A DNA stretch of 64,000 nucleotides from Escherichia phage vB_EcoM-ZQ1, in the sequence record MW650886.1. One strand, written 5' to 3'. Position 1 is the first letter of the stretch; each line of letters begins with the position of its first letter. A program made the position numbers and the translations under genes. Shown here piece after piece: positions 3,334 through 62,074 of the stretch. The notes beneath the pieces were generated by a model that was not told the DNA's origin, did no database searches, and was given only the letters and a program-made list of their open reading frames with translations.

Positions 3334-3368
3334 CAATAAACAAAAGGAGCTGCTATTATAGCAGCCCC
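3334..3368 (-). terminator. intrinsic terminator
   Basis: GCTGCTA-TTA-TAGCAGC hairpin followed on the minus strand by TTTTGTTTATT. Confidence 0.5.
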
Positions 3369-3399
3369 TTCATCTATTGAACAGTTTCTGAACTTAAAT

Positions 3400-12296: not shown

Positions 12297-12363
12297 TCGA
12301 ATAAAACAAATAAAATGAACGGAAGCAGAGCTTCCTATAGTATATAAGGCAAAATCAGCTGCG

Positions 12364-12371
12364 CATAAATA
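12364..12371 (+). promoter_or_regulatory. late-promoter-like motif CATAAATA
   Basis: 7/8 match to TATAAATA, 34 nt upstream of the gp5-like ATG; same spacing as the motif at 6251. Confidence 0.4.
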
Positions 12372-12405
12372 CCTTCAAATCCTTGTTTGACAACCGGAAC
12401 TCAAT

Positions 12406-14557: not shown

Positions 14558-15019
14558 CTACTCCGCCAGGGTGATCACAACCATATTTAAGACTGTGTCG
14601 ATAGCTCGGCCTGTTTCCTCTTCATGGAGGGTTTCGGCGCGGAGGTGCACGTCGGTGATGAAATTGTCGATGTGCATTGAAGTCAGGTACGGGCGGTGCT
14701 GGGATAATGGACGGTTGGCCATCACATAATTGCGCAGTGTGTTGAAGTCCTGATGAGAGCATTCTGTGGTATCGATACGGAGGAAGCGTTCGTTGTGTCT
14801 TGTCTTCAACTCAGTTGCTTTCCCGAGGTAGACCAGAGGTCCATTGCGACCGATACGGAACATGACATCAACAACAGACTTGAAGATTTCGCGTTCAATC
14901 AGTGCGGTGGGTGACCAGCAGATCTCTTCTTTGTCGTCGGCGTACAGGGTGTCGATCACCAGAGGAAGCTGAATGTAACCGAAGTTGTGCAGTGGGTTGG
15001 TAAGTACCTTGTTTGTCAT
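14558..15019 (-). CDS. hypothetical protein (possible GIY-YIG endonuclease, EndoII-like)
   Basis: 153 aa; PLVYLGKATELKTRHNE resembles T4 EndoII ELVYIGKTKNLRKR; weak call; carries the conserved leader/start motif. Confidence 0.3.
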   Translation of the reverse strand: MTNKVLTNPLHNFGYIQLPLVIDTLYADDKEEICWSPTALIEREIFKSVVDVMFRIGRNGPLVYLGKATELKTRHNERFLRIDTTECSHQDFNTLRNYVMANRPLSQHRPYLTSMHIDNFITDVHLRAETLHEEETGRAIDTVLNMVVITLAE

Positions 15020-15068
15020 GATATAGTTCCCGCTTTCAATTTGTGGCGAATGCCAATGAATTACTGGG

Positions 15069-15097
15069 AAGTATAAGCGCAGGGATTATAGAAGTAA
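15069..15097 (-). promoter_or_regulatory. early promoter (-35 TTTACT, 17 nt, -10 TATACT) abutting a hairpin
   Basis: GGGGCTTTACTTCT...TATACTTC; same architecture as the cassettes at 27987 and 61083. Confidence 0.5.
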
Positions 15098-15117
15098 AGC
15101 CCCTCAATGAGGGGCTT
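15095..15117 (-). terminator. hairpin after nrdH (terminator element of a promoter-hairpin cassette)
   Basis: AAAGCCCCTCATTGAGGGGCTTT inverted repeat immediately followed by the TTTACT -35. Confidence 0.45.
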
Positions 15118-15124
15118 TGGCTTG

Positions 15125-19741: not shown

Positions 19742-19810
19742 GGGAACCTTCCTATATCTCAGGGTGTCATCACCTCTAATTAAGGTGACAACCCCAGCAT
19801 ACCTGAGGAT

Positions 19811-21244: not shown

Positions 21245-21733
21245 TTATGCCAGTTTGCTCACCAGAGCTTCAACTGCGTCGGCGCTCAGTTTACCCATTT
21301 TGACGTACTGAGCTTTTGCTTCGCCACCAACAGCTTTCACGATGTCGGTGTTGTCGTACCCCTTCTTAGGGAAGACCATCACAGAGAAGGAACCGTTGTT
21401 CAGCGGGTTCAGCTGGATGCGACCTTTACCGACTACGATGGTGCCGTAAGTTTCGGTGCTTGCTTCGACAATGTGGATGTCGTGACCCAGGTTTTTCAGC
21501 ATACCAACTTTGTCGGCAGTCTTAGCAACCACAGCTTTATCAACCACAACCTGCTCTACCAGGGTGAAGCCGTTAGTCACTTTCACTTTACCGTTCAGCA
21601 GGTTCATGAAGGAAGTTTTACCACCAGTGAAGCCAGCTGCCTGAGCGATGCGGAACATTTCAACTTTAGCAACTTCGGTGTTCAGTTCGAAAGAGATGGT
21701 GCCGTTGGTGATCAGAGTTTTGGTAGTAGCCAT
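21245..21733 (-). CDS. hypothetical protein
   Basis: Start re-set to MATTKTL with AGGA SD; strong sigma70-like promoter upstream. Confidence 0.5.
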   Translation of the reverse strand: MATTKTLITNGTISFELNTEVAKVEMFRIAQAAGFTGGKTSFMNLLNGKVKVTNGFTLVEQVVVDKAVVAKTADKVGMLKNLGHDIHIVEASTETYGTIVVGKGRIQLNPLNNGSFSVMVFPKKGYDNTDIVKAVGGEAKAQYVKMGKLSADAVEALVSKLA

Positions 21734-21806
21734 GATGTAATTCCTCATAATGTAGTTGGTGCGTTTCACTTTTCATTCGGCGGTGTGTTGCCGCCCTATG
21801 TGAACT

Positions 21807-21835
21807 ATAATAGTGCATCATTATTGAAGAGTAAA
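21807..21835 (-). promoter_or_regulatory. early promoter (-35 TTTACT, 17 nt, -10 TATTAT)
   Basis: TTTACTCTTCAATAATGATGCACTATTAT upstream of the 21245..21733 gene. Confidence 0.45.
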
Positions 21836-23789: not shown

Positions 23790-23799
23790 GATGTTGTCC

Positions 23800-23834
23800 T
23801 CAGAAAAAGAAATCCCCCTGTATTTAAGGGGGAT
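23800..23834 (-). terminator. intrinsic terminator
   Basis: ATCCCCC...GGGGGAT hairpin followed by TTCTTTTTCT. Confidence 0.5.
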
Positions 23835-24180: not shown

Positions 24181-24204
24181 CTTAATCTCCTCGGGGATTT
24201 AAGT

Positions 24205-24212
24205 TATTTATA
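24205..24212 (-). promoter_or_regulatory. T4-type late promoter motif TATAAATA (minus strand)
   Basis: Reverse complement of TATTTATA, 24 nt upstream of the 23875..24180 ATG, directly after a terminator hairpin. Confidence 0.45.
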
Positions 24213-24229
24213 AGCCCCCGAAGGGGCTT
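24212..24229 (-). terminator. hairpin after the 1096-aa gene
   Basis: AAGCCCC-CGAA-GGGGCTT stem-loop 8 nt past the stop; followed by the late-promoter motif. Confidence 0.45.
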
Positions 24230-27602: not shown

Positions 27603-27938
27603 TTATTTTTGAACTTGGGCTACAGACATCGCCCAGAGCGGGAGGGTGTGGGGGTCCAGGGCTTCCAGTAGATATTCGACGCGCTCTGACATGATACCTT
27701 CAGGGAAGTTTACTTCTTCTGGTTCGTTGTTGGCCGTCCAACCCAATGTCAGTCCTTCAGCGTGATGGATGATATAAACGAAGTCGTCTGGTTCGTAGTC
27801 CTTTTCCATCAGGGCGAAGAAATCTTCCATTTCTTCGTCGGAGAAGTAGTAGATGCGAGGTACAGAGCCGTCAGCAAAGTGCTCAGCACCCTGGAAGGCA
27901 AACATGTCATCGGCGGTGAAGTTCTTGAGTTGTGTCAT
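27603..27938 (-). CDS. hypothetical protein
   Basis: Start MTQLK preceded by the conserved leader TTGAAAAGCAGGAACTATATCATG. Confidence 0.45.
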   Translation of the reverse strand: MTQLKNFTADDMFAFQGAEHFADGSVPRIYYFSDEEMEDFFALMEKDYEPDDFVYIIHHAEGLTLGWTANNEPEEVNFPEGIMSERVEYLLEALDPHTLPLWAMSVAQVQK

Positions 27939-27986
27939 GATATAGTTCCTGCTTTTCAAGTTGGTGTCGTACTGCTTATGGAATGA

Positions 27987-28015
27987 AGTATAGGAAAGGA
28001 TATTGAAGAAGTAAA
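27987..28015 (-). promoter_or_regulatory. early promoter (-35 TTTACT, 17 nt, -10 TATACT) within a promoter-hairpin cassette
   Basis: TTTACTTCTTCAATATCCTTTCCTATACTTCATTCCATAAGCAG, near-identical to the cassette at 61083. Confidence 0.5.
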
Positions 28016-28031
28016 GGGGCGAAAGCCCCTT
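28014..28031 (-). terminator. hairpin (terminator element of a promoter-hairpin cassette)
   Basis: AAGGGGC-GAAA-GCCCCTT; T-rich on both sides. Confidence 0.45.
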
Positions 28032-28044
28032 TTATTGAATTATT

Positions 28045-38375: not shown

Positions 38376-39038
38376 TTACACCTCCACCGCGTGAGACTTC
38401 AGGAGTTCATCAATCTCTTTCTGTCCCATGTATGAGAACGGGGTGCGCTGGTAGAACGCCCAGAGTACTAACTGGACAACAGCACGGGAACGGGTTTCGG
38501 CCGTCATCACCAGGCCACTGAAATGAGGAGACTCAGCTGTCCATTGTATATCTTCGCCCAGGTCTTGATTACAGGTCACCGAGATGCGGAACTTGTTGCA
38601 CAGATTGTCGACTTCTTTGTACGCATCGGTAGACACACGAAGTTGTTCCGCATGTACCCACGGAGTTGTGATGATTCTTTCACCCAACGTCTTTTCTGAA
38701 ACGAACCAATCAATAGATTGGGTAAACTCGCTGAAATGGTCGATACGATAAATGCAGTCTCCCCCTTCCATAGAACGCATGGCATGATAGCGAGCGTCGA
38801 TTTCGTTGTTGTGCATCGCGTTGAAGTCGATGAACACGCGACGCGCCAGCACAACATCTTCTGGTTGAAGTGCCAGGAAATCGTTCAGGCGGCTATAATG
38901 GAGGATATTGGAACCGTCGTGGCCACGTGTGCAATATGCGTAATGGCTACCGATACGGGCGTGGGCAATATAAGACAACGGGGCGAAGAATAATCCGTCA
39001 GGATCAGGACCGACGATAATAGAATAAAGTTTTTCCAT
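38376..39038 (-). CDS. hypothetical protein
   Basis: Start re-set to MEKLYSII, preceded by the conserved ACTATATCATG start context. Confidence 0.45.
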   Translation of the reverse strand: MEKLYSIIVGPDPDGLFFAPLSYIAHARIGSHYAYCTRGHDGSNILHYSRLNDFLALQPEDVVLARRVFIDFNAMHNNEIDARYHAMRSMEGGDCIYRIDHFSEFTQSIDWFVSEKTLGERIITTPWVHAEQLRVSTDAYKEVDNLCNKFRISVTCNQDLGEDIQWTAESPHFSGLVMTAETRSRAVVQLVLWAFYQRTPFSYMGQKEIDELLKSHAVEV

Positions 39039-39094
39039 GATATAGTCACTCAAATGAAAGGGCAGCTTTATGATAAGCCGCCCGAGGTTATTGA

Positions 39095-40330: not shown

Positions 40331-41013
40331 TCGTTCTCCTTCATCATATTGTCGCAGTCAACACGAGTCTGCTGGAGTTCGCGCGACATGCGGGGATCAT
40401 CAAGGTTCACGCTCAGATTCGTGGCCAGGTCTTTCAGACCGTTCTGAACCCTGTCTTCAAAGTAATAATCGTTCTCAACCAGCCAGGCTCTGAGACCAAG
40501 AGCGCGGGTGCGCCATTCCTTCTTCAGGACGCGATCAGAGGTCTGCGTAGCGCTGTATTCGAATACTTTGACGCACTGGTTGCCATCGTTGATGAGGTTC
40601 AGGTGGCGGCGACCAACCTGCACACCCTTCTGTAATGCCGGAGAAGGGAGCGAACGGCACTGTCTTACGGTCATTCGGCCTTGGGTGCCCATTCGGCCAG
40701 TCATGATTAAATCGCCAGCCTCCATGCCTCCACGGTTAAATTCGTCGTCATTGAGGTAGCCCTTGAGGTTATAGGCTCCCTGTTTGTAACGGTTGAACTC
40801 AATTCCGGCATTGACGACAGCAGTGGAGACGTTGCCTGTGTTCCAGAGTTCAGCGAAGTTCTCTATGGAACCAGACTTGTCGATGGCAACCGCCTGGGAG
40901 AACCCAGCACAATAGGAAAGGTCGGACCACAGTTTATCACCTGTGGAGTTCAGCTTGGCAGCGGCGGGTAATGCCAGACCAGCCAGCACAACCCCGAGGA
41001 TTAAACGTTTCAT
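40327..41013 (-). CDS. secreted protein (signal peptide)
   Basis: Start re-set to MKRLILGVVLAGLALPAAA with AGGAGA SD. Confidence 0.5.
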   Translation of the reverse strand: MKRLILGVVLAGLALPAAAKLNSTGDKLWSDLSYCAGFSQAVAIDKSGSIENFAELWNTGNVSTAVVNAGIEFNRYKQGAYNLKGYLNDDEFNRGGMEAGDLIMTGRMGTQGRMTVRQCRSLPSPALQKGVQVGRRHLNLINDGNQCVKVFEYSATQTSDRVLKKEWRTRALGLRAWLVENDYYFEDRVQNGLKDLATNLSVNLDDPRMSRELQQTRVDCDNMMKENE

Positions 41014-41766: not shown

Positions 41767-42022
41767 TCAGGATACGAGCGGTGTCGAAAGTTTCCCCGCC
41801 CGTGTTCAGCAGCTTGGTTAGATCATCAAGAGTACCGACAGGGCCAAGATCAGATGACCGCGATATAAACTCCAGCATGCCATACAACGCTGTTTGGAAT
41901 CGGCTGTTGTCGATATCGTTCTTTATTACCATCAGGCGCAAGATGTTCTCTGACTGAGTATGGCCAACACACGCCTTGTCTCTGATCATCTCCTTGATAG
42001 AACTTCTCTCTGATGGTGTCAT
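41735..42022 (-). CDS. hypothetical protein
   Basis: 95 aa ORF. Confidence 0.35.
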   Translation of the reverse strand: MTPSERSSIKEMIRDKACVGHTQSENILRLMVIKNDIDNSRFQTALYGMLEFISRSSDLGPVGTLDDLTKLLNTGGETFDTARILIDGGPEEDEV

Positions 42023-42393
42023 AACGTACCCCCGACAGAGATCAAGAACTCTTCTTGCATGGTCTTGACCGGGTGGTGGTTGCGGGTTTCGAACATGAAG
42101 CCCCAGCCACCGTCGGCGACGTTACCAAAGGTCTTGACACCAAAGGACTTCGTCCCGTTGGAGCAGGAATAGATGTCCAGGACGTATGGGCTACCCTGAT
42201 TGTCGATCCCACGATTCACGTCGTCTGATACACAGCGCTCAATCATCTTCCCGTTCTTATACAGAACGAGGTCTTGACCATACGCCTTGAAAGCATAAAC
42301 ACCGTTGGTAGACACTCCGGTGATGACAGGAGGGGCGGAAACAGCAGCAAAGGAAGCGCCTAGCAGGGCAACAGCGAGGATTAACTTTTTCAT
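42019..42393 (-). CDS. secreted protein (signal peptide)
   Basis: Start MKKLILAVALLGASFAAVSA preceded by the conserved leader motif. Confidence 0.45.
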   Translation of the reverse strand: MKKLILAVALLGASFAAVSAPPVITGVSTNGVYAFKAYGQDLVLYKNGKMIERCVSDDVNRGIDNQGSPYVLDIYSCSNGTKSFGVKTFGNVADGGWGFMFETRNHHPVKTMQEEFLISVGGTL

Positions 42394-42445
42394 GATATAG
42401 TCTCTTGGTTTCAAATGGGCGGGGTATGATTACCCCGCCGTGGGT

Positions 42446-42952
42446 TTATAGGGTAACAAGTGATACGGTAAAAACCATCGTCCCGTCTGTTGCCATTTTT
42501 CTTGAAACTGGTATGACGCGAGGCTGGCAGAATATCCATTCTTTCTCCATGGACGCCAAGTCCAGCATATCCATTTCTGATTCATCGCCTTTGTTCACAA
42601 ATTTTTCTAGAGAACCATAGACATTAAGCCCCTCCGGGAGTCTGTTTCGATGTTTGTAACAAATGCGGGCAACAGCTTTGGTTCCGTACGATTTAGAAAA
42701 TTTTTTGGCCACATGCTTCAGTTCACTGAAGCTAAGACAAGAATCCCATGTCTGGAACATGTCGCCTCGTTCAAACATCATCTCTAAACGCGCAACGTCC
42801 TCTTTAGGCAGCCCGCGATAAAGTGTGGTCGTCTGTGGTTCGCGCAATTCTTGCACCAGATCACGGACGGCAGGGGAAACAGTACCGGGGCGCATGATGT
42901 GGGACTTATCATGGACGAGGTAAAATAAATCTTGAATTTGTTGATCAGTCAT
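42446..42952 (-). CDS. hypothetical protein
   Basis: Start MTDQQIQ with AGGAACTATATCATG context. Confidence 0.45.
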   Translation of the reverse strand: MTDQQIQDLFYLVHDKSHIMRPGTVSPAVRDLVQELREPQTTTLYRGLPKEDVARLEMMFERGDMFQTWDSCLSFSELKHVAKKFSKSYGTKAVARICYKHRNRLPEGLNVYGSLEKFVNKGDESEMDMLDLASMEKEWIFCQPRVIPVSRKMATDGTMVFTVSLVTL

Positions 42953-43011
42953 GATATAGTTCCTGCATTTCAAATAGACGGGGTAATCATACCCCGCCCA
43001 AAGTTATAGAA

Positions 43012-43251
43012 TTAGCTGATATGCTTCAGAAGAGCGAAGAGGATCACGGCCTTGGCCTTTACCTTTCCTACGATGCCTGTCTCGACATCAACTTCTTCAG
43101 CAACCCACTCTTTTCCCTTCTTGCTGATGATAACGTCACGACGCTGTGCGTAGACTTCTTTGGTCGCATACACACGACGGAACCCTTTAGCGCGGAGCAA
43201 TCCCCAATTGCGATCAATCTCTACTGAAGTTTCGACCATTTTGTTCTTCAT
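43012..43251 (-). CDS. hypothetical protein
   Basis: 79 aa; promoter-hairpin cassette upstream. Confidence 0.4.
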   Translation of the reverse strand: MKNKMVETSVEIDRNWGLLRAKGFRRVYATKEVYAQRRDVIISKKGKEWVAEEVDVETGIVGKVKAKAVILFALLKHIS

Positions 43252-43302
43252 GATATAATCTTACCTTTCAACCCGGTGAACCCATCGTTCGCCAGTTATT
43301 GA

Positions 43303-43331
43303 ATAATAGGACATTCCTTAGAGGAAGTAAA
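43303..43331 (-). promoter_or_regulatory. early promoter (-35 TTTACT, 17 nt, -10 TATTAT) after a repeat hairpin
   Basis: GGGGTTTACTTCCTCTAAGGAATGTCCTATTAT. Confidence 0.45.
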
Positions 43332-43367
43332 CCCCTAAAAGTAAAAATCCCCAACGTTTGTTGGGGA
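43324..43367. repeat. 44-bp direct repeat, copy 1 (contains an 11-bp-stem hairpin)
   Basis: GAAGTAAACCCCTAAAAGTAAAAATCCCCAACGTTTGTTGGGGA, identical to 43683..43726. Confidence 0.7.
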
Positions 43368-43384
43368 TTTAATAAAAGTTATGC

Positions 43385-43609
43385 CTATTTAATTTCTCGG
43401 CTTGAATTTTCTAGTTCTAATTTTCTTATAGCAGAAATTCTGCCTTCATCAGTTGCGGGAAACTCCCAAACAGCACGACGCCCGTTGTTGGTATCACAAC
43501 TTGCCAGCCAGCAGAAATTAGAGGGGTCCTTAAACAAGACCAATTTAGGGTTAGCAATATTGTTCAGGCAAAATGGGGTGAGGTCAACAACACATGATAT
43601 AGCAGACAT
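43385..43609 (-). CDS. hypothetical protein
   Basis: 74 aa; promoter-hairpin cassette upstream. Confidence 0.4.
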   Translation of the reverse strand: MSAISCVVDLTPFCLNNIANPKLVLFKDPSNFCWLASCDTNNGRRAVWEFPATDEGRISAIRKLELENSSREIK

Positions 43610-43668
43610 AATATATACCTTCTTTCAATGAACGGGAACGCCCCGCTCTATGAATTCAATAATACGCA

Positions 43669-43697
43669 TTTACATTATAGAAGTAAACCCCTAAAAG
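43669..43697 (-). promoter_or_regulatory. early promoter (-35 TTTACT, 17 nt, -10 TATTAT) after a repeat hairpin
   Basis: GGGGTTTACTTCTATAATGTAAATGCGTATTAT. Confidence 0.45.
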
Positions 43698-43726
43698 TAA
43701 AAATCCCCAACGTTTGTTGGGGACTT
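43683..43726. repeat. 44-bp direct repeat, copy 2
   Basis: Identical 44-mer 359 bp downstream of copy 1; each copy precedes a small gene. Confidence 0.7.
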
Positions 43727-47274: not shown

Positions 47275-49293
47275 TTAGAACACAACTTTCACAGTGCGGT
47301 TGAACGAACCGCTCACCTTCACGAACACGTGGTTGCGTTGGGTGGTAGAGAAGCCCAGACCGGACAGCTGCTCAGTGCTTGGCTGTACTTTAATCTTACC
47401 ACCTAACATTTCAAAAACCTTGCGGTGTTTATCAAGTTCCGGCTTCAGATATTCGTTATAGAAACCACGGGTGCCGACAGGGTTAGCACAACCTTCCAGG
47501 ATGAAGAACACGTGCTTGTTGCCAGTCTGCTCGCCGTCCCAATGGTTTGGTGAGTTCAGAACCAGCTGTACCTTCTGGAAGACGGAGGTCTTGATACCCC
47601 AGATTTCCTGAGAGCGAGCGTCGTCTTTCAGGGTAGAACTGATGTCAACCACCTGACCAGCGCGAACCTGAACCACAACAGCCAACGTGCGATCTTTGTT
47701 ACCCAGGCCAGGGTGTGAGAAGCGCTTAGTCTGACCTTTGTATTCAACTTCGATTTCGAAACCAACGTCACAGGTTTCACGCTTGTTGAAGTTGGTGACA
47801 TAGAACTCATAATTCCCGTCGCGCAGCTTGCTTTCATCGCTAAAGAAGATGTTCTCCACCGGACGGCGGTTTGGATCAATGCCGTCCATACCGTTCATGT
47901 CGATGTCCAGAGTTGCGCCAGTTGACGAACGACGGTTGCGAAAATATACGTGGTTGTGAAGAGGATCGTTCATGCTCAGATCCAGGTCGTCGTTGTTATG
48001 CCAAGCCAGTGACACGCGGAGGAAGCTGTCGACATTGCCGCCTGCGGTCTTCACGCGCTCTTTGATGGAGTCGGCCACTTCGCCATTGTACGACCAGCTG
48101 AAGCCGTTGTTCCACTTGAACAGGTTAGGAGCGCCTGCGGTAGCCGGAGCGATCAGGGACATCAGGTTGCCAATGTGAGAGTTTTCAACCAGTACTTCCA
48201 GGGAATGCGCCTTTGGCAACACGTTGGTCAGGAAGTCGTCGATCGTGATCTCTTCAACCTTGTCCAGGGACTTGGTCGGAGTCTTCACTTCAGACGCCAG
48301 CTGAGCAAACGGGTCCATCTTCTTCTGAGCTGCCAAATCGGCGAACAGAACGTTGTTGATGGTCAGATCGTCATACACGGCATAACGGCGACCCAGTGAA
48401 TCAGTCAGACCCAGCGCTTCGACTTCTTTCTGCGCGTTTTCAATCATCGACTTCGTGACCAGCGCGGTTGGGCGCTTGTAGTTCGTCGGAGCGACTTTGG
48501 CTTCAAAGGACTTCACGGCGGTTTCCAGATCCCGGCCTTCATTGAGGTCTACCAGCAGAGAGCCAATCACGGTATTACGAATGCCGTGAGGGATATGACC
48601 GTTTGCACGGTAGCCAGTGCGCCAAGCCCACAGAGCGCGTTTCTCTTCTGCAGTTTGTTCGTACAGGGTCTTGTTCACCACGAACGCCTGCACTGCCGCT
48701 TTGTGCTCTTCACCGCGATACAGAGAATTCTGGTCAATCAATTCCAGAACGATTTCAGCCGATTCCAGAGACAGTTCACGCAGGCCGCGCTCAAACACTT
48801 CAATCGCCTGGCGGATTTCACCCTTCTTAGAAGCGATGGTATCTGCCCGCAGAACATAGCTACCCAGCAGGTCGGTGTGGAAGTGGTTGTAGGTGCGGAC
48901 AATACCGTCTTTCATTTCGTGATTCGACCCAACACCAACTTTCTTGGTGTCGTTGAAGTACACATCGACGATTGCGTGCTGCTTAACATATGCTGACAGC
49001 GCCGCAGCGACAACGTCGTATTCGTTACCCAACTGAATGTTATCCCAGATAGAGATCACGTTCAGGTCGGAGTCGATGGTGACCACACCGCCGATATTAC
49101 GGATGAATTGTTTACAGCAGGTACAGTCGTGCTCGGTACGCTCACGATAAAGCGGGTTAGTGCCAGCAGGGAAAGAAGACAGATACAGATCCCACAGAGC
49201 ATCTTTATCGATGTTGGTCATGAACAGACCAGTTGCTGACATGGCCAGCACGTTATTGTTGACAGCTACTGCGAAGGGCTTAAAATCTGACAT
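47275..49293 (-). CDS. large hypothetical protein (672 aa)
   Basis: Long ORF with GGAAG SD; no family-B polymerase motifs (DxxSLYPS, YGDTDS) seen on inspection. Confidence 0.6.
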   Translation of the reverse strand: MSDFKPFAVAVNNNVLAMSATGLFMTNIDKDALWDLYLSSFPAGTNPLYRERTEHDCTCCKQFIRNIGGVVTIDSDLNVISIWDNIQLGNEYDVVAAALSAYVKQHAIVDVYFNDTKKVGVGSNHEMKDGIVRTYNHFHTDLLGSYVLRADTIASKKGEIRQAIEVFERGLRELSLESAEIVLELIDQNSLYRGEEHKAAVQAFVVNKTLYEQTAEEKRALWAWRTGYRANGHIPHGIRNTVIGSLLVDLNEGRDLETAVKSFEAKVAPTNYKRPTALVTKSMIENAQKEVEALGLTDSLGRRYAVYDDLTINNVLFADLAAQKKMDPFAQLASEVKTPTKSLDKVEEITIDDFLTNVLPKAHSLEVLVENSHIGNLMSLIAPATAGAPNLFKWNNGFSWSYNGEVADSIKERVKTAGGNVDSFLRVSLAWHNNDDLDLSMNDPLHNHVYFRNRRSSTGATLDIDMNGMDGIDPNRRPVENIFFSDESKLRDGNYEFYVTNFNKRETCDVGFEIEVEYKGQTKRFSHPGLGNKDRTLAVVVQVRAGQVVDISSTLKDDARSQEIWGIKTSVFQKVQLVLNSPNHWDGEQTGNKHVFFILEGCANPVGTRGFYNEYLKPELDKHRKVFEMLGGKIKVQPSTEQLSGLGFSTTQRNHVFVKVSGSFNRTVKVVF

Positions 49294-49407
49294 GATGTAA
49301 TCTTCCTGTTTCAGTTCAAATGTGCGCCCCGTTTGCCAGGGCGCTTCGTTTAAGTGAGGTCAATATACGCTGGATTGAGTTATTGAAGAACGAAGTAAAG
49401 GGAATCT

Positions 49408-50640: not shown

Positions 50641-50673
50641 GAATACGAAAACAGAGGCCATTATAGCCTCTGT
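50641..50673 (-). terminator. intrinsic terminator (loop contains TATAAT)
   Basis: ACAGAGGC-CATTATA-GCCTCTGT followed by TTTTCGTATTC. Confidence 0.5.
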
Positions 50674-50696
50674 TGTTTAGTGAATAACCGTATATC

Positions 50697-51585: not shown

Positions 51586-52050
51586 TTATTCGCTTTTTGC
51601 CTTCGTAGGCCGGATGATGTATTTTGGAACCAGTTTCCATTCAGGAACCTGATCGTGTTTAACCACTTTAATGCGAGACATATCGGCTGCTTCAGTGACC
51701 TGCTCAGGATGAATGACCTTCACCATGTTCCACTGCTCCAGCAGCTTGATGATGCGGTTCATCCTCAGGACATCTTCGCGGTTAAATCCGTTGTAATGCC
51801 CGTCCAGCATAAATAGATGCTTAAAGTGGACGATATAATACTTACCACACTTATGAAGAATATGGCAAGTCTGATACAGAGTATTCGGCTCTTGGCGCGT
51901 GTTTACCCCAATTCGACTCAGTGTTTCCTTGATCCCCAGGAATATACCTGGCCGATCTTGGTTCAATTGAACTTCAACCATACAATCAACGATGCTGGCC
52001 TCATCGTTGACTGCTGAAATATTCAATATGTCTAGCGTATTACGCGCCAT
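51586..52050 (-). CDS. regA: translational repressor RegA
   Basis: LYQTCHILHKCGKYYIVHFKHLFMLDG and EWKLVPKYII match T4 RegA (LYQSCHILQKKGLYYIVHFKEM, EWKLVPKYTI); the start may be the internal MVEVQL. Confidence 0.7.
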   Translation of the reverse strand: MARNTLDILNISAVNDEASIVDCMVEVQLNQDRPGIFLGIKETLSRIGVNTRQEPNTLYQTCHILHKCGKYYIVHFKHLFMLDGHYNGFNREDVLRMNRIIKLLEQWNMVKVIHPEQVTEAADMSRIKVVKHDQVPEWKLVPKYIIRPTKAKSE

Positions 52051-52079: not shown

Positions 52080-52502
52080 CTATTTAGCCTTGCGCGGTTT
52101 CGCTTTGGCGTTCAGCTCAGTGCGTCTCATCTTCTCGCGTATCTCGGCCAGGACTTCCTTCGGCAAGAAACGGACGTACTCCGATGCCTTCTCCATGCTG
52201 ATGTAGAAGTACTCTGAGAGTAACTTCACGTCAGGATCAATCGGACCTTTCTTAGACCATTTGTCGTAGCGTTTCCGAGCCGGAATGGTGTAAAAGGCAT
52301 ATGACCATTGCATCCATGGAGTGATAGCATGTAGCTTATTCATCTGTTGCGCAGCCACTAGAGTGTCTTTGCTCTGAGCTAAACCACGCCGCGTCATAAA
52401 CGGGTCGAATCCTTTCAACACTTCTGGGTCATCAGACCGCAAAAGGTTTTCTTTGCTGCTGTTCAGAGCAGCCAGGTAATCGAACAATCCAAGGGCGGCC
52501 AT
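52080..52502 (-). CDS. 62: clamp loader small subunit (T4 gp62-like)
   Basis: PARKRYDKWSKK resembles T4 gp62 PRGKRYGKWAK; sits between gp44 and regA as in T4; start re-set to MAALGLF with GGAAGTGA SD. Confidence 0.6.
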   Translation of the reverse strand: MAALGLFDYLAALNSSKENLLRSDDPEVLKGFDPFMTRRGLAQSKDTLVAAQQMNKLHAITPWMQWSYAFYTIPARKRYDKWSKKGPIDPDVKLLSEYFYISMEKASEYVRFLPKEVLAEIREKMRRTELNAKAKPRKAK

Positions 52503-52506
52503 AATA

Positions 52507-53493
52507 TCACTTCCACTTGATGTTGAGCATGACATTGGTCAGGAAAAACACAGCATGCAGCCAGACATCGCCGACTTGACGGTGTTCAATCTGAGACTGA
52601 CCACATACGCATACCAGATCCGGGATAGACTCATTCTGAACCAACATTTGCTTCTCTTTATCCTGTGGTACACAGAACTGGAAGAAGCGGGAATAGAAGT
52701 CTTCAGTGATATAGTTCTGGTTGTCGGTCACCCACTGCTTCATCCCAGCCCAGTCATTATCCTTCAACATATTCACCAACATACCCATATCGGCCGATTT
52801 TAACACAGCCAGTGCACGTTCGTCGATCTTGCCGTAAGTGGTGACGTTATCCTGTAGAACACCCATGATGCGGCGGTTATCAGGGAAATGGCGCTTGACA
52901 ATAGCAGCCAACACAGGAGGGTCATACTCAACACCTTCGCAGCGAAGGATTTCAGCACAGCGGCGCATGAACTGAAGTTTTACCTCATCAGCCTCAGCCT
53001 CATTCCAGATAAAGTCGATTTCACGGCAACGAGAGCGCAGAGGTTCGTTCACACGTTGCTTGGCGTTGGTGGTCAGGATGAATGAACAGTTCTTGGAGAC
53101 CTTCTCCACAATACCCTTCAGCGACTCCTGTGCCGCCATAGACAGACGCTCTACTTCGTCGAGGATAACGACTTTGCGACCACCGAATACGCTCACACCA
53201 GTAGAGTACTGAATCACGCGGTCACGGATAACGTCGATGCTGTTGTCCAGGGATGCGTTGATCATCAGTGGTTGCTTACAACCGATTTCATTACACACGG
53301 CCAGGGCGGAGGTAGTCTTGCCAGTACCAGGCTGAGGGGAGTAGAACAGCATAGACGGGATGTTGCCGTTGCCGCTGGTGATGTAGCCATGGATTTTAGC
53401 GCGGACGTCTTGAGGGATGATAATCTCGTCCAGGTTGTCAGGGCGGTACTTGTTTTCCCATGCGTACTGGTCGGAAACGATAGTAATATTAGA
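52507..53493 (-). CDS. 44: clamp loader ATPase subunit (T4 gp44-like, AAA+)
   Basis: ENKYRPDNLDEII, PGTGKTT, ILDEVERL and SRC motifs match T4 gp44; start re-set to MSNITIV. Confidence 0.85.
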   Translation of the reverse strand, partial: SNITIVSDQYAWENKYRPDNLDEIIIPQDVRAKIHGYITSGNGNIPSMLFYSPQPGTGKTTSALAVCNEIGCKQPLMINASLDNSIDVIRDRVIQYSTGVSVFGGRKVVILDEVERLSMAAQESLKGIVEKVSKNCSFILTTNAKQRVNEPLRSRCREIDFIWNEAEADEVKLQFMRRCAEILRCEGVEYDPPVLAAIVKRHFPDNRRIMGVLQDNVTTYGKIDERALAVLKSADMGMLVNMLKDNDWAGMKQWVTDNQNYITEDFYSRFFQFCVPQDKEKQMLVQNESIPDLVCVCGQSQIEHRQVGDVWLHAVFFLTNVMLNIKWK

Positions 53494-53576
53494 CATTTCA
53501 GCCTCGTGTAGAAGAATCATTTCAAATAGGCGGGGAACGCCCCGCCCACACATTATAGCATCAGGCTGGAGATTGA

Positions 53577-54245
53577 TTACTCAATCTGTGCGCCGACGAA
53601 GTAATTGATCGTCGCGTCGGATGATTGGAAGTTCACCATCTGTAGATCAGCACAGGCACGCAAAGTGTAGTTGCCTTCGATCATTTTCAGGTTGGCAACA
53701 TCCAGCGGCATTACGAAGTCCGGCAGCGCGGTTTCGCCCAGCTCAACAGTGTAGTTGTTGGAGTTGTCCAGGGTAGTAGTGGTTGCAACCAGGCGAGTTT
53801 TGCCACCCTGAGCAACCAGGCGCACAGTCTTATGTCCGAGGGTAGAACAGGCGCGGGTCAGTTCTTTCATCTTCTCTGGAGTGATGATCGCTTCAAAGTC
53901 GACAGACGGCAGTTCAATAGTATCAGCCGGGACAACCGTGAGTTCTTTAGCAGAACGCCAGAATTGCAGCTGAGAACTTTCGCCCTTCAACAGGATGTAG
54001 TCCTGATGGAATTCGGCTTTGGCACCTTTAAAGGAAGGTAGGCGCTGGATAGCCAGAAGTTTGGTCAGGTCCAGAATCGGGAACTCAAACGGGAAGTCTT
54101 CTTCGATCTGCGCCACGGCGATCACAGTAGAAGAATCATTAATACTGCGCAGCATCTTGCCCGGTGTCAGAACGATAGATGGGTTGATGGTCTCAAAGTT
54201 GGCCAGCAACTGAAGTGTACGTTCGGAGAGAGTGATCTCTTGCAT
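53577..54245 (-). CDS. 45: sliding clamp (T4 gp45-like)
   Basis: 222 aa, the size of gp45; two-domain beta-rich protein directly upstream of gp44/gp62/regA in T4 order. Confidence 0.8.
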   Translation of the reverse strand: MQEITLSERTLQLLANFETINPSIVLTPGKMLRSINDSSTVIAVAQIEEDFPFEFPILDLTKLLAIQRLPSFKGAKAEFHQDYILLKGESSQLQFWRSAKELTVVPADTIELPSVDFEAIITPEKMKELTRACSTLGHKTVRLVAQGGKTRLVATTTTLDNSNNYTVELGETALPDFVMPLDVANLKMIEGNYTLRACADLQMVNFQSSDATINYFVGAQIE

Positions 54246-56483: not shown

Positions 56484-56511
56484 ACAAAATCTCCCAAGGA
56501 TTATGGGGTAT

Positions 56512-60759: not shown

Positions 60760-61041
60760 TTAGAACAAATGCTCGCCTTCCACATGGTATGCTAACACGC
60801 CGTCAGAACATTCAAAATACATGTTATCATATTCCCACAGAGCGGTGATTTCTTCACCCTGGCAAACCACCGAAAACTTCGGCTGGCTGGCCTTAACTGG
60901 AAATTTTTCAGGGGAAGAGATTGGGGTGAATTTGGCATTTCTGACGGCCATACCAACAAATTGCTGCAATGTTACTTTGTAACGAGAGTGGGTGATAGTG
61001 CCAGCATTCAGGGCTTCGATCAATTGCGCTTTAGTTGTCAT
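60760..61041 (-). CDS. hypothetical protein
   Basis: 93 aa; conserved leader/start motif and promoter-hairpin cassette upstream. Confidence 0.4.
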   Translation of the reverse strand: MTTKAQLIEALNAGTITHSRYKVTLQQFVGMAVRNAKFTPISSPEKFPVKASQPKFSVVCQGEEITALWEYDNMYFECSDGVLAYHVEGEHLF

Positions 61042-61082
61042 GATATAGTTCCTTCATTTCAGAGTCAGTGTTGTGCTGCTTA

Positions 61083-61110
61083 TGGAATGAAGTATACGGG
61101 GTTTATTGAA
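61083..61110 (-). promoter_or_regulatory. early promoter (-35 TTTACT, 16 nt, -10 TATACT) embedded in a hairpin
   Basis: ACGGGGTTTACTTCTTCAATAAACCCCGTATACTTCATTCCATAAGCAG. Confidence 0.5.
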
Positions 61111-61143
61111 GAAGTAAACCCCGTATTCAACTTTTTATTGAAT

Positions 61144-61829: not shown

Positions 61830-61849
61830 CATGATATAGATCCTTCCTT

Positions 61850-62074
61850 TCAAAGAATGTTGTGTTCGTCGATATCGGACTGCGTTGCAATCTCCCAGCG
61901 GACGATGTTCTCGGTTGTGATGAAATCACGGTTCAGGTGAGAGGCTGGAACATACACCATCGTGTCGACCATGAAGTAACACTGCTCATTGTTACAAGAA
62001 TCAACGTAAACCTCGATGAGGCACACCTCGGCAACACCGGCTTTCGGCTTCTTCACGATCTTTTTCAAGTACAT
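61850..62074 (-). CDS. hypothetical protein
   Basis: Start MYLKK with GAGGG SD. Confidence 0.4.
   Translation of the reverse strand: MYLKKIVKKPKAGVAEVCLIEVYVDSCNNEQCYFMVDTMVYVPASHLNRDFITTENIVRWEIATQSDIDEHNIL

Follow-up and report, generated by a model that had tools for sequence, protein, structure and literature searches.

The window analysed here, a stretch of 64,000 nt from Escherichia phage vB_EcoM-ZQ1 (record MW650886.1), holds T4-like replication, recombination and nucleotide-metabolism genes, and most of its genes lie on the minus strand. Its closest match is the Agtrevirus-type Escherichia phage LHE287 (~98% identity over the region of interest and the first 25 kb, which were compared), the next-best matches are YX22, PC3 and AV101, and Shigella phage Ag3 is a 92% match. 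On these matches, we consider the phage to be an Agtrevirus (ViI-like, Ackermannviridae); position ~48,865 of LHE287 corresponds to window base 1. The subject of this study is a short translation-initiation leader, TTGAAA-N3-AGGAACTATATC-ATG or a close variant of it, which stands 5′ of 11 minus-strand genes in the window. A preliminary description had reported a near-identical leader on at least eight minus-strand genes, with variants at 21733 and 49293. The leader and both variants were recovered, and the last ATG was placed at 61832 instead of 61829. The window also encodes, as that description had stated, a homologue of the translational repressor RegA, at 51586-52050 on the minus strand (PF01818, E=2e-34).

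A repeated initiation region and the elements that carry it

With up to three mismatches allowed, the full 24-mer TTGAAA-N3-AGGAACTATATCATG has five matches in the window, all on the minus strand, and none in 100 dinucleotide shuffles. The core ACTATATCATG, with at most one mismatch, has nine matches against a shuffle mean of 0.88, and nine was reached in no shuffle. Eight of the nine are the starts of open reading frames (ORFs) of at least 79 aa; these leader ATGs lie at 15019, 27938, 39038, 42393, 42952, 43251, 61041 and 61832, and their ORFs measure 79-220 aa. The ninth match (43593-43603) is found 13 nt inside the gene that starts at 43609, right behind that gene's own leader variant, which is an additional copy and opens a 74-aa ORF.

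The preliminary description had set the leader against the frequency that a Shine-Dalgarno (SD) sequence and an AT-rich spacer would produce by themselves. Under a null that uses the position-specific composition of positions -8 to -1 in 70 other called genes, 0.33 genes are expected within one mismatch of ACTATATC, and seven were observed. The distribution of mismatches to ACTATATC is bimodal. Because of this excess, and because no other gene has fewer than two mismatches, the leader is a discrete class of initiation region and not a by-product of SD sequences and A/T-rich spacers. The 70 other genes, all with at least two mismatches in the 8-nt spacer, led us to reject the leader as a general property of gene starts. 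It was also rejected as a part of paralogous N-termini, since the downstream ORFs are unrelated by BLASTP. In LHE287, of which 147,999 of 149,485 nt were covered in three assembled pieces, 10 genuine leader copies were found versus ~0.3 per shuffle.

The consensus of the window copies and of 50 distinct versions from several genomes is T-T-G-A-A-A-n-G-n-A-G-G-A-A-C-T-A-Y-A-T-C-ATG-A-C/A-A, with an information content that is inflated because the 50 versions were chosen by similarity to the consensus. The best-kept parts are (A/G)ACTAYATC-ATG and the TGAAA at -20 to -16, and the SD core is variable (AGGA, GGGA, AGAG, AGTG, AAGA). The earlier claim that conservation extends past the SD sequence therefore holds. 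As RNA, the block reads UUGAAA-N3-AGGAAC-UAUAUC-AUG, with the segments UGAAA and ACUAUAUC. Its SD sequence is spaced as AGGA plus 8 nt, which is the optimal aligned spacing to the 16S tail. The spacer is A/U-rich, and the second codon is usually ACN or AAN. In a comparison that depends on a crude purpose-made gene caller, the predicted structure from -40 to +30 is weaker in leader genes than in other genes (mean minimum free energy, MFE, -6.2 vs -10.8 kcal/mol; Mann-Whitney p=0.002), and the predicted 5′ untranslated region (5′UTR) of 27938 is unpaired in the centroid structure. When the spacer was set by hand against the 16S rRNA 3′ end, no pairing past AAGGA was apparent. The role of a ribosome-binding or enhancer-type initiation region fits the leader, because its SD sequence stands at an 8-nt spacing, its predicted structure is low, and the motif is kept where the flanks have diverged.

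No match to Rfam 15 was found at the gathering threshold in the whole window, and a string search of the literature for the leader motif returned unrelated primer or vector matches only. A late or middle promoter on the sense strand was rejected, since TTGAAA is just 9-11 nt from TATATC/TATCAT and the start would fall in the ORF. Late-promoter-like (T/C)TAAATA(C) motifs sit elsewhere in the window, away from the leaders.

Upstream of seven of the 11 leaders stands a promoter of the sigma70/T4-early type, TTTACT-N16/17-TATACT (or TATTAT, TATAAT), and the other four have none. The pattern TTTACW-N16-18-TAYWHT describes eight promoters, all on the minus strand. The distance from the end of the -10 box to the leader ATG is 48-51 nt in six promoter-borne copies and 73 nt at the 21733 variant. 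The promoters 5′ of the ATGs at 41013 and 4236 are of the same type but have no leader; therefore, leader and promoter are separable. A/T-rich stretches, such as aaataattcaataaaa and ttattgaat, lie immediately 5′ of the -35 box or the stem-loop. The stem-loop is upstream of the -35 box or overlaps it at 15019, 27938, 43251 and 43609, surrounds the -35 box and the spacer at 61041, and falls in the 5′UTR at 21733 and 49293. Three copies (39038, 42393 and 42952) have a hairpin-only context, in which a stable stem-loop (-18 to -20 kcal/mol, z = -3.1 to -3.8) comes right behind the upstream stop codon and is followed by the leader. The copy at 61832 adjoins neither promoter nor hairpin (Table 1).

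According to the preliminary description, a hairpin of the GGGGTA..TACCCC type often precedes the leader. Such a hairpin is present at 42393 and 42952 only, and the one at 39038 is a different GC hairpin. A terminator scan was passed by the hairpins 39060-39083 and 43345-43370. Those near 42418-42439 and 42977-42999 have only (C/T)ATTTGAAA behind them and lack the T-run of the scan. By itself, ATTTGAAA is not clearly enriched (seven matches vs 3.5 expected) and was rejected as a separate motif.

Table 1. Positions of the leaders, stem-loops, composite elements and late-promoter-like motifs in the window
Feature	Position	Strand	Remark
Leader TTGAAACCAAGAGACTATATC-ATG of a 124-aa ORF (42019-42393), function unknown (PHROG), signal-peptide-like N-terminus	42391..42414	-	
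GC stem-loop GGCGGGGTA-ATCA-TACCCCGCC, between upstream stop codon and leader	~42418..42439	-	construct MFE -18.7 kcal/mol, z = -3.8
Leader TTGAAATGCAGGAACTATATC-ATG of the 168-aa ADP-ribosyltransferase-like cargo ORF (42446-42952)	42950..42973	-	
GC stem-loop GGGCGGGGTA-TGAT-TACCCCGTC	~42977..42999	-	-20.1 kcal/mol
Stem-loop 39060-39083 (terminator-like) and leader variant TTTCATTTGAGTGACTATATC-ATG, 220-aa ORF	39036..39083	-	orthologous leader kept in Vi01
Complete element: stem-loop 15096-15118, -35 TTTACT 15093-15098, -10 TATACT 15070-15075, leader 15017-15040, 153-aa ORFan	15017..15118	-	
Complete element, socket B: stem-loop 28013-28032, -35 28010-28015, -10 27987-27992, leader 27936-27959, 111-aa ORFan	27936..28032	-	
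Complete element, socket D: stem-loop 61097-61123 around -35, -35 61113-61118, -10 61091-61096, leader 61039-61062, 93-aa ORFan	61039..61123	-	
Complete element: terminator-like stem-loop 43345-43370, -35 43326-43331, -10 43303-43308, leader variant GTTGAAAGGTAAGATTATATC-ATG, 79-aa ORF	43249..43370	-	73-nt repeat
Complete element: stem-loop 43701-43726, promoter 43659-43687, leader variant TTGAAAGAAGGTATATATT-ATG, 74-aa ORF 43385-43609	43607..43726	-	absent from the preliminary description; ORF flanked by the 73-nt repeat
Leader TTGAAAGGAAGGATCTATATC-ATG, 147-aa ORF	61830..61853	-	
Variant element: -35 21830-21835, -10 21807-21812, 5′UTR stem-loop 21779-21796, 162-aa ORF	21731..21835	-	
Variant element: weak promoter 49362-49390, 5′UTR stem-loop 49324-49344, TTTGAAC, leader CTGAAACAGGAAGATTACATC-ATG, 672-aa ORF	49291..49390	-	
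(C/T)TAAATAC/ATAAATA motifs, approximate coordinates	12360-12400 (+); 56490-56510, 19745-19775, 23795-23815, 24185-24215 (-)	+, -	

Conservation of the elements and exchange of the ORFs behind them

The 114-nt promoter-leader 5′ of 27938 recurs in 276 phage records that span Agtrevirus, Limestonevirus, Kuttervirus and Taipeivirus, at 80-98% identity and in two to four places per genome; a 25-kb query from the window reaches just 60-80% identity in most of these records. The record of LIMEstone1 labels the element as a 'putative middle promoter' and a terminator. Between the window and Salmonella phage Vi01, a member of another subfamily, identity is 76-100% in the final 60 nt of the elements and 89-100% in their final 24 nt, compared with 65-84% for the flanking coding sequence (-300 to -110). 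The stem-loops show compensatory changes versus Vi01, including at the 15019 element. Moreover, the leader genes that are still the first of their unit in Vi01 (39038, 49293 and 61832) retain the motif. At 61832, it has been kept although the sequence immediately upstream has diverged, which speaks for a constraint on the motif itself.

A strict 23-nt pattern was scanned over 2.9 million IMG/VR contigs and matched 38 stretches. The matched contigs are 152-164 kb in length or are fragments homologous to the Ackermannviridae lineage, except for two near-identical contigs that are Rha-like and have no promoter context. We judged these two to be a chance match (our own rough expectation is ~0.7). 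The 40 exact instances in IMG/VR stand upstream of 15 unrelated protein families, and the TGAAA-N3-AGGAACTAYATC block appears to be lineage-specific in this collection. A scan with a 14-mer was discarded because chance matches dominate it.

Four window ATGs, 15019, 27938, 42952 and 61041, mark syntenic positions, here called sockets A to D, at which the ORF behind the element in Vi01 has no BLASTP similarity to the window ORF. At all four, the upstream gene and the element are covered by nucleotide homology (77-85%), which ends at +3 to +7 of the ATG. It resumes near the stop codon at sockets B (+354/+295) and D (+272/+444). At socket A, the leader in Vi01 is followed by an additional ORF of 77 aa, and the orthologue of the window gene has been displaced downstream and has lost its leader. 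The suggestion of cassette-borne leaders in the preliminary description is supported by this pattern: the leader belongs to elements of stem-loop, promoter and leader that are fixed in place while the ORF is swapped, with the homology breaking at the ATG.

At socket C in the window, an ADP-ribosyltransferase (ART)-like ORF is followed by the 124-aa ORF, each with its own copy of the hairpin and leader. In LHE287 the first ORF is missing, and the junction lies within the shared TTTGAAA, between the hairpin of copy 1 and the leader of copy 2. Elsewhere the socket holds DenV (Vi01, LIMEstone1), a 92-aa ORF that immediately follows the leader, or the ART-like ORF and then the 92-aa ORF, and these cargos (ART, DenV, the 92-aa ORF and the 124-aa ORF) occur in at least five arrangements. 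DenV of Vi01 is followed by TGA-AGAGGCTATATC-ATG of the following gene, and a 50-aa insert elsewhere in Vi01 ends within GAGGACTATATCATG of the gene that follows it. Therefore, inserts are bracketed by a second, partial copy of the leader. The two hairpins that flank the ART-like cassette in the window, at 42416-42437 and 42979-43000, are 100% mutually complementary along 22 nt. They share one palindrome, but its 4-nt loop is flipped between them (ATCA vs TGAT), which would fit an inversion of one hairpin copy.

At socket D, the window cargo is present in 54 of 271 records, other genera included, and other records carry cargos that differ in length; the unrelated cargos number at least three. 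In 45 Klebsiella phages, the homology at this socket ends 3-5 nt past the A of the ATG. Furthermore, the two socket-B cargos, the Vi01-type of 91 aa and the window-type of 111 aa, stand in tandem on one metagenomic contig of IMG/VR (L078), separated solely by TAA and TTTGAACCGAAGGAACTATATC, a 24-nt leader. The leaders cover ~0.4% of the window, and segments that start within 12 nt of a leader ATG make up three of the 20 that are non-homologous versus Vi01 and two of the six versus LHE287.

In LHE287, the socket-D cargo (record 111,885-111,930; window 60760-61041) is a remnant with deletions between the direct repeats ACTAT and ATTTGTT. Its -35 box is mutated to TTTAAT, and the cargo has decayed by microhomology deletion. 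The same phage has a 118-aa ORFan with its own full promoter-leader between gp19 (tail tube) and gp18 (tail sheath), at 120,822-121,227 of the record; it looks like an early-expressed moron in a late operon. Vi01 has a GIY-YIG endonuclease at the gp19/gp18 position.

Pfam gave no match for any of ten leader genes, and PHROGs places nine leader genes in families of unknown function. The cargo set consists of ORFans, one ART-like gene in the window and DenV in Vi01. The product of the ART-like ORF matches the PHROG 'RNA polymerase ADP-ribosylase' (phrog_832, E=5.7e-15) and no Pfam family, and the gene is absent from the 98%-identical LHE287. The CBA120 paper (2011) suggests that ViI-like phages are without homologues of the T4 RNA-polymerase ADP-ribosylating proteins; therefore, this accessory gene of 168 aa may be of interest. 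Small ORFans behind strong early promoters would suggest host-takeover or accessory genes.

Explanations for the repeated leader

According to Arbiol et al. (2010, PMC2839356) and Comeau et al. (2014, PMC4122927), the promoter-early stem-loops (PeSLs) of the T4-like phages RB49/phi1, T4/PST and KVP40/nt-1 combine a sigma70-like early promoter with an A/T-rich region and a G/C stem-loop, for which five positions around the promoter are described, and end on the 3′ side in the SD sequence and ATG of the downstream gene. They cluster by ORFans in hyperplastic regions, at the junctions of insertions, deletions or replacements between close relatives, and recombination between neighbouring PeSLs yields mini-circles, with crossovers between the -10 box and the ATG. 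The promoter consensus of the T4/PST PeSLs, TTTACW-N17-TAYWAT (PMC2839356, PMC4122927), matches the window promoters. The window elements are likewise composite, with an A/T-rich stretch upstream and the SD sequence and ATG at the 3′ end. Their stem-loops fill all five published positions, if the cases with a TATAAT loop (3343-3371 and 50650-50674) are included. They also stand beside small ORFans, and the junctions of indels and replacements between relatives lie inside the element. Every PeSL feature that is defined by sequence was found in the window, and the four leaders without a promoter are comparable to the published 'half PeSLs'. However, the host phage here is a ViI-like member of the Ackermannviridae, and we found no paper that links PeSLs to ViI-like or Ackermannviridae phages. 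Judged by the published descriptions, the 3′ module appears to differ as well: it is a sharply conserved 24-nt block across four genera, with conservation beyond the SD sequence, and this block is also the sole spacer between tandem cassettes.

Liebig & Rueger (1989), as cited in PMC3184105, describe T4 early promoter regions with conserved ribosome-binding sites. The window elements resemble these regions in the GTTTAC-type -35 box and the extended conserved context, which is followed by conserved initiation regions, but the apparent restriction of the TGAAA-N3-AGGAACTAYATC block to one lineage in IMG/VR would set them apart from the T4 regions as described. An analogy, and only that, may also be drawn with integron cassettes and lambdoid 'morons', which share the single-ORF units, promoterless or self-promoted, at fixed positions with a repeated structured boundary, and the different combinations of cassettes per genome that are seen at socket C. 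Neither an integrase nor an attC-type site was identified here, and the repeat is a translation leader and not a recombination site for a dedicated enzyme. Homologous recombination by the phage itself is the simplest explanation of the exchange.

We consider it likely that the leader combines two roles, as a portable, open translation initiation region for early genes and as homology for the ORF-precise exchange of cassettes of the PeSL type. From 5′ to 3′, the full cassette would start with an A/T-rich stretch and a GC stem-loop, continue with a T4-type early promoter and a CA-rich, presumably unstructured 5′UTR of ~42 nt, and end in the leader block. Its promoter, TTTACT-N16/17-TATACT, would be immediate-early and read by the host sigma70 RNA polymerase, and the stem-loop would terminate, attenuate or insulate transcription from upstream. 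The last 24 nt would also serve alone, or with the stem-loop only, as an intercistronic junction. For whichever ORF follows, the leader would provide a strong, open and correctly spaced ribosome-binding site for immediate-early expression. A sequence of ~24-100 nt that recurs within a genome as well as from one genome to another, and stops at the ATG, would at the same time be portable homology, and homologous recombination between copies of the leader or PeSL could insert, excise or swap whole ORFs at the fixed sockets. Selection would then retain only the in-register products, in which the newcomer ORF is correctly expressed. In the genomes compared, the architecture, its non-random repetition, its conservation across genera, and ORF-precise replacement with bracketing copies and tandem intermediates can be read directly from the alignments.

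Several points weigh against this proposal. The transcription start, the early timing, the terminator activity and the strength of translation are all deduced from sequence. Seventeen of the 20 indels between the window and Vi01 are not beside a leader, and the loss at socket D in LHE287 consists of two microhomology deletions inside the ORF, with no recombination between leaders. The end of homology at the ATG could partly be survivorship, in that in-register replacements stay expressed, rather than a record of crossovers in the leader. Moreover, a generic initiation region leaves unexplained why ACUAYAUC and UGAAA are fixed and the SD core is variable; therefore, a specific binding factor may be involved.

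Such a factor is the basis of the alternative in which the leader is the RNA operator of a phage translational repressor, with RegA as the candidate, that acts on the SD-AUG spacer and the AUG for later joint shut-off. It is compatible with cassette exchange, but we regard it as doubtful. T4 RegA contacts its targets at the SD-AUG spacer and the AUG, and its sites are degenerate and A/U-rich, with no sharp 11-mer. The window leader resembles the RegA operators of T4 and RB69 as a short RNA element that covers the AUG of several early mRNAs together with the SD-AUG spacer, in a genome that has the repressor gene. Its best-kept positions are in this spacer and the AUG rather than the SD core, orthologous leaders have retained the motif despite diverged flanks, and the full 23-nt motif is limited in IMG/VR to this lineage, one probable chance match aside. 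However, the motif is absent upstream of the orthologues of the known targets gp45, gp44, gp62 and regA (53577-54245, 52507-53496, 52080-52502 and 51586-52050), and it is much sharper than the T4 sites. The co-occurrence of RegA and the motif is uninformative, since all members have both. The preliminary description had named a repressor target among its alternatives and pointed to RegA; the analysis yielded no support for a RegA operator. In a broader form, the 24-nt leader would be a lineage-specific RNA operator, for RegA or another phage or host factor, and would act as one post-transcriptional early-to-late switch for the socket genes. We hold this to be unlikely; if true, the phages would possess a plug-and-play expression standard in which promoter, UTR and operator are fixed and ORFs are exchangeable across four genera.

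It is quite improbable that the copies arose neutrally from a single promoter-leader unit, through gene conversion or a recent duplication, with an ordinary SD sequence as the sole requirement. Sockets B and D and the gp19/gp18 insert of LHE287 do share the whole promoter and 5′UTR, beyond the motif, and recombination between copies is evident. However, with 85-100% in their last 60 nt, the elements are better conserved across subfamilies than the neighbouring coding sequence with its 69-84%, the copies in unrelated contexts (15019, 43251, 61832 and hairpin-only) share the 24-nt block alone, and the 61832 motif has been kept versus Vi01 despite the diverged upstream flank. The stem-loop with AUUUGAAA could instead be a determinant of RNA processing or stability, either as a target of RNase E or RNase III or, if a weak promoter (TTCTGA-N17-TATAAC/T) starts transcription at the hairpin, as a 5′ protective hairpin, with the leader as the 5′ end of the processed mRNA; this would concern three hairpin copies only, and we give it very little weight. 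The RNase processing site named in the preliminary description gained no specific support. A stable hairpin abuts the leader in the three copies, no T-run of the kind that the terminator scan needs follows the hairpins at 42393 and 42952, and Vi01 has a perfect TATAAT 4 nt 5′ of the socket-C hairpin; but seven copies have no hairpin beside the leader, and the lack of clear enrichment of ATTTGAAA argues against processing as well. Finally, the core might be a DNA signal of the opposite strand, in that ACTATATCA has the complement TGATATAGT, which could act as an antisense promoter of the extended -10 type, opposite to the early transcripts. TGnTATAAT is matched at eight of nine positions (nine of nine at 43251), and a scan flagged 42932-42960 on the plus strand. 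However, the equivalent of the -11 A is changed in 26% of the 50 distinct versions (sense -4 T to C), the equivalent of the -7 T varies too, no plus-strand genes lie downstream of the sites, and translation fully explains the ATG and the SD spacing. This candidate, which is hardly conceivable, was rejected on account of the variation at its critical positions.

If the leader is indeed an initiation region that also serves cassette exchange, the ViI-like family gains a concrete consensus for its early promoters and leaders, where early regulation was an acknowledged gap: early promoters could not be identified in the CBA120 paper (2011), and the 2024 review of the Ackermannviridae is silent on promoters and transcription. 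We found no RNA-seq literature on promoters of Kuttervirus or Ackermannviridae. The PeSL principle would be extended past the T4-like phages to cassettes with an unusually sharp leader module, and the sockets would form a map for the ORF-for-ORF exchange of accessory early genes (ADP-ribosyltransferase-like, DenV, ORFans) between genera. They may also offer a natural, evolution-validated insertion site and expression leader for the engineering of Ackermannviridae for use in biocontrol and diagnostics.

Further features of the window

Motifs of the form (C/T)TAAATAC or ATAAATA stand 20-40 nt 5′ of several genes, e.g., gp5 and UvsW, and look like TATAAATA, the late promoter of T4. For ViI-like phages, the late promoter was reported as unidentified in 2011.

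The 21733 element holds two tandem, in-frame degenerate leaders, TGAAACGCACCAACTACATT-ATG-AGGAATTACATC-ATG (that is, TGAAACGCACCAACTACATT-ATG-AGG-AAT-TAC-ATC-ATG), within 21731-21775. They are conserved in LHE287 and Vi01 and make the start of the 162-aa gene ambiguous, with five extra codons possible. The 672-aa leader gene (47275-49293) corresponds to two adjacent annotated ORFs in Vi01 (matches of 481 aa and 184 aa; Vi01 85303-87319), which could reflect a frameshift or a sequencing error, or a gene that is truly split there.

The minus-strand stem-loops 3343-3371 and 50650-50674 have 9-11 bp and a loop that is exactly TATAAT. They end 18-20 nt 5′ of the start codons 3324 and 50628, which have ordinary SD regions and no conserved leader, and they resemble the PeSL subclass with a stem-loop over the -10 box. 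Upstream of the gp44 orthologue (clamp loader), a hairpin is followed by CTATTTGAAATGA (53520-53527, minus strand), as in the 5′ half of a hairpin-leader unit. What comes next is an unrelated SD region (CACGAGGCTGAA-ATG), and the locus is possibly a half-element from an old exchange.

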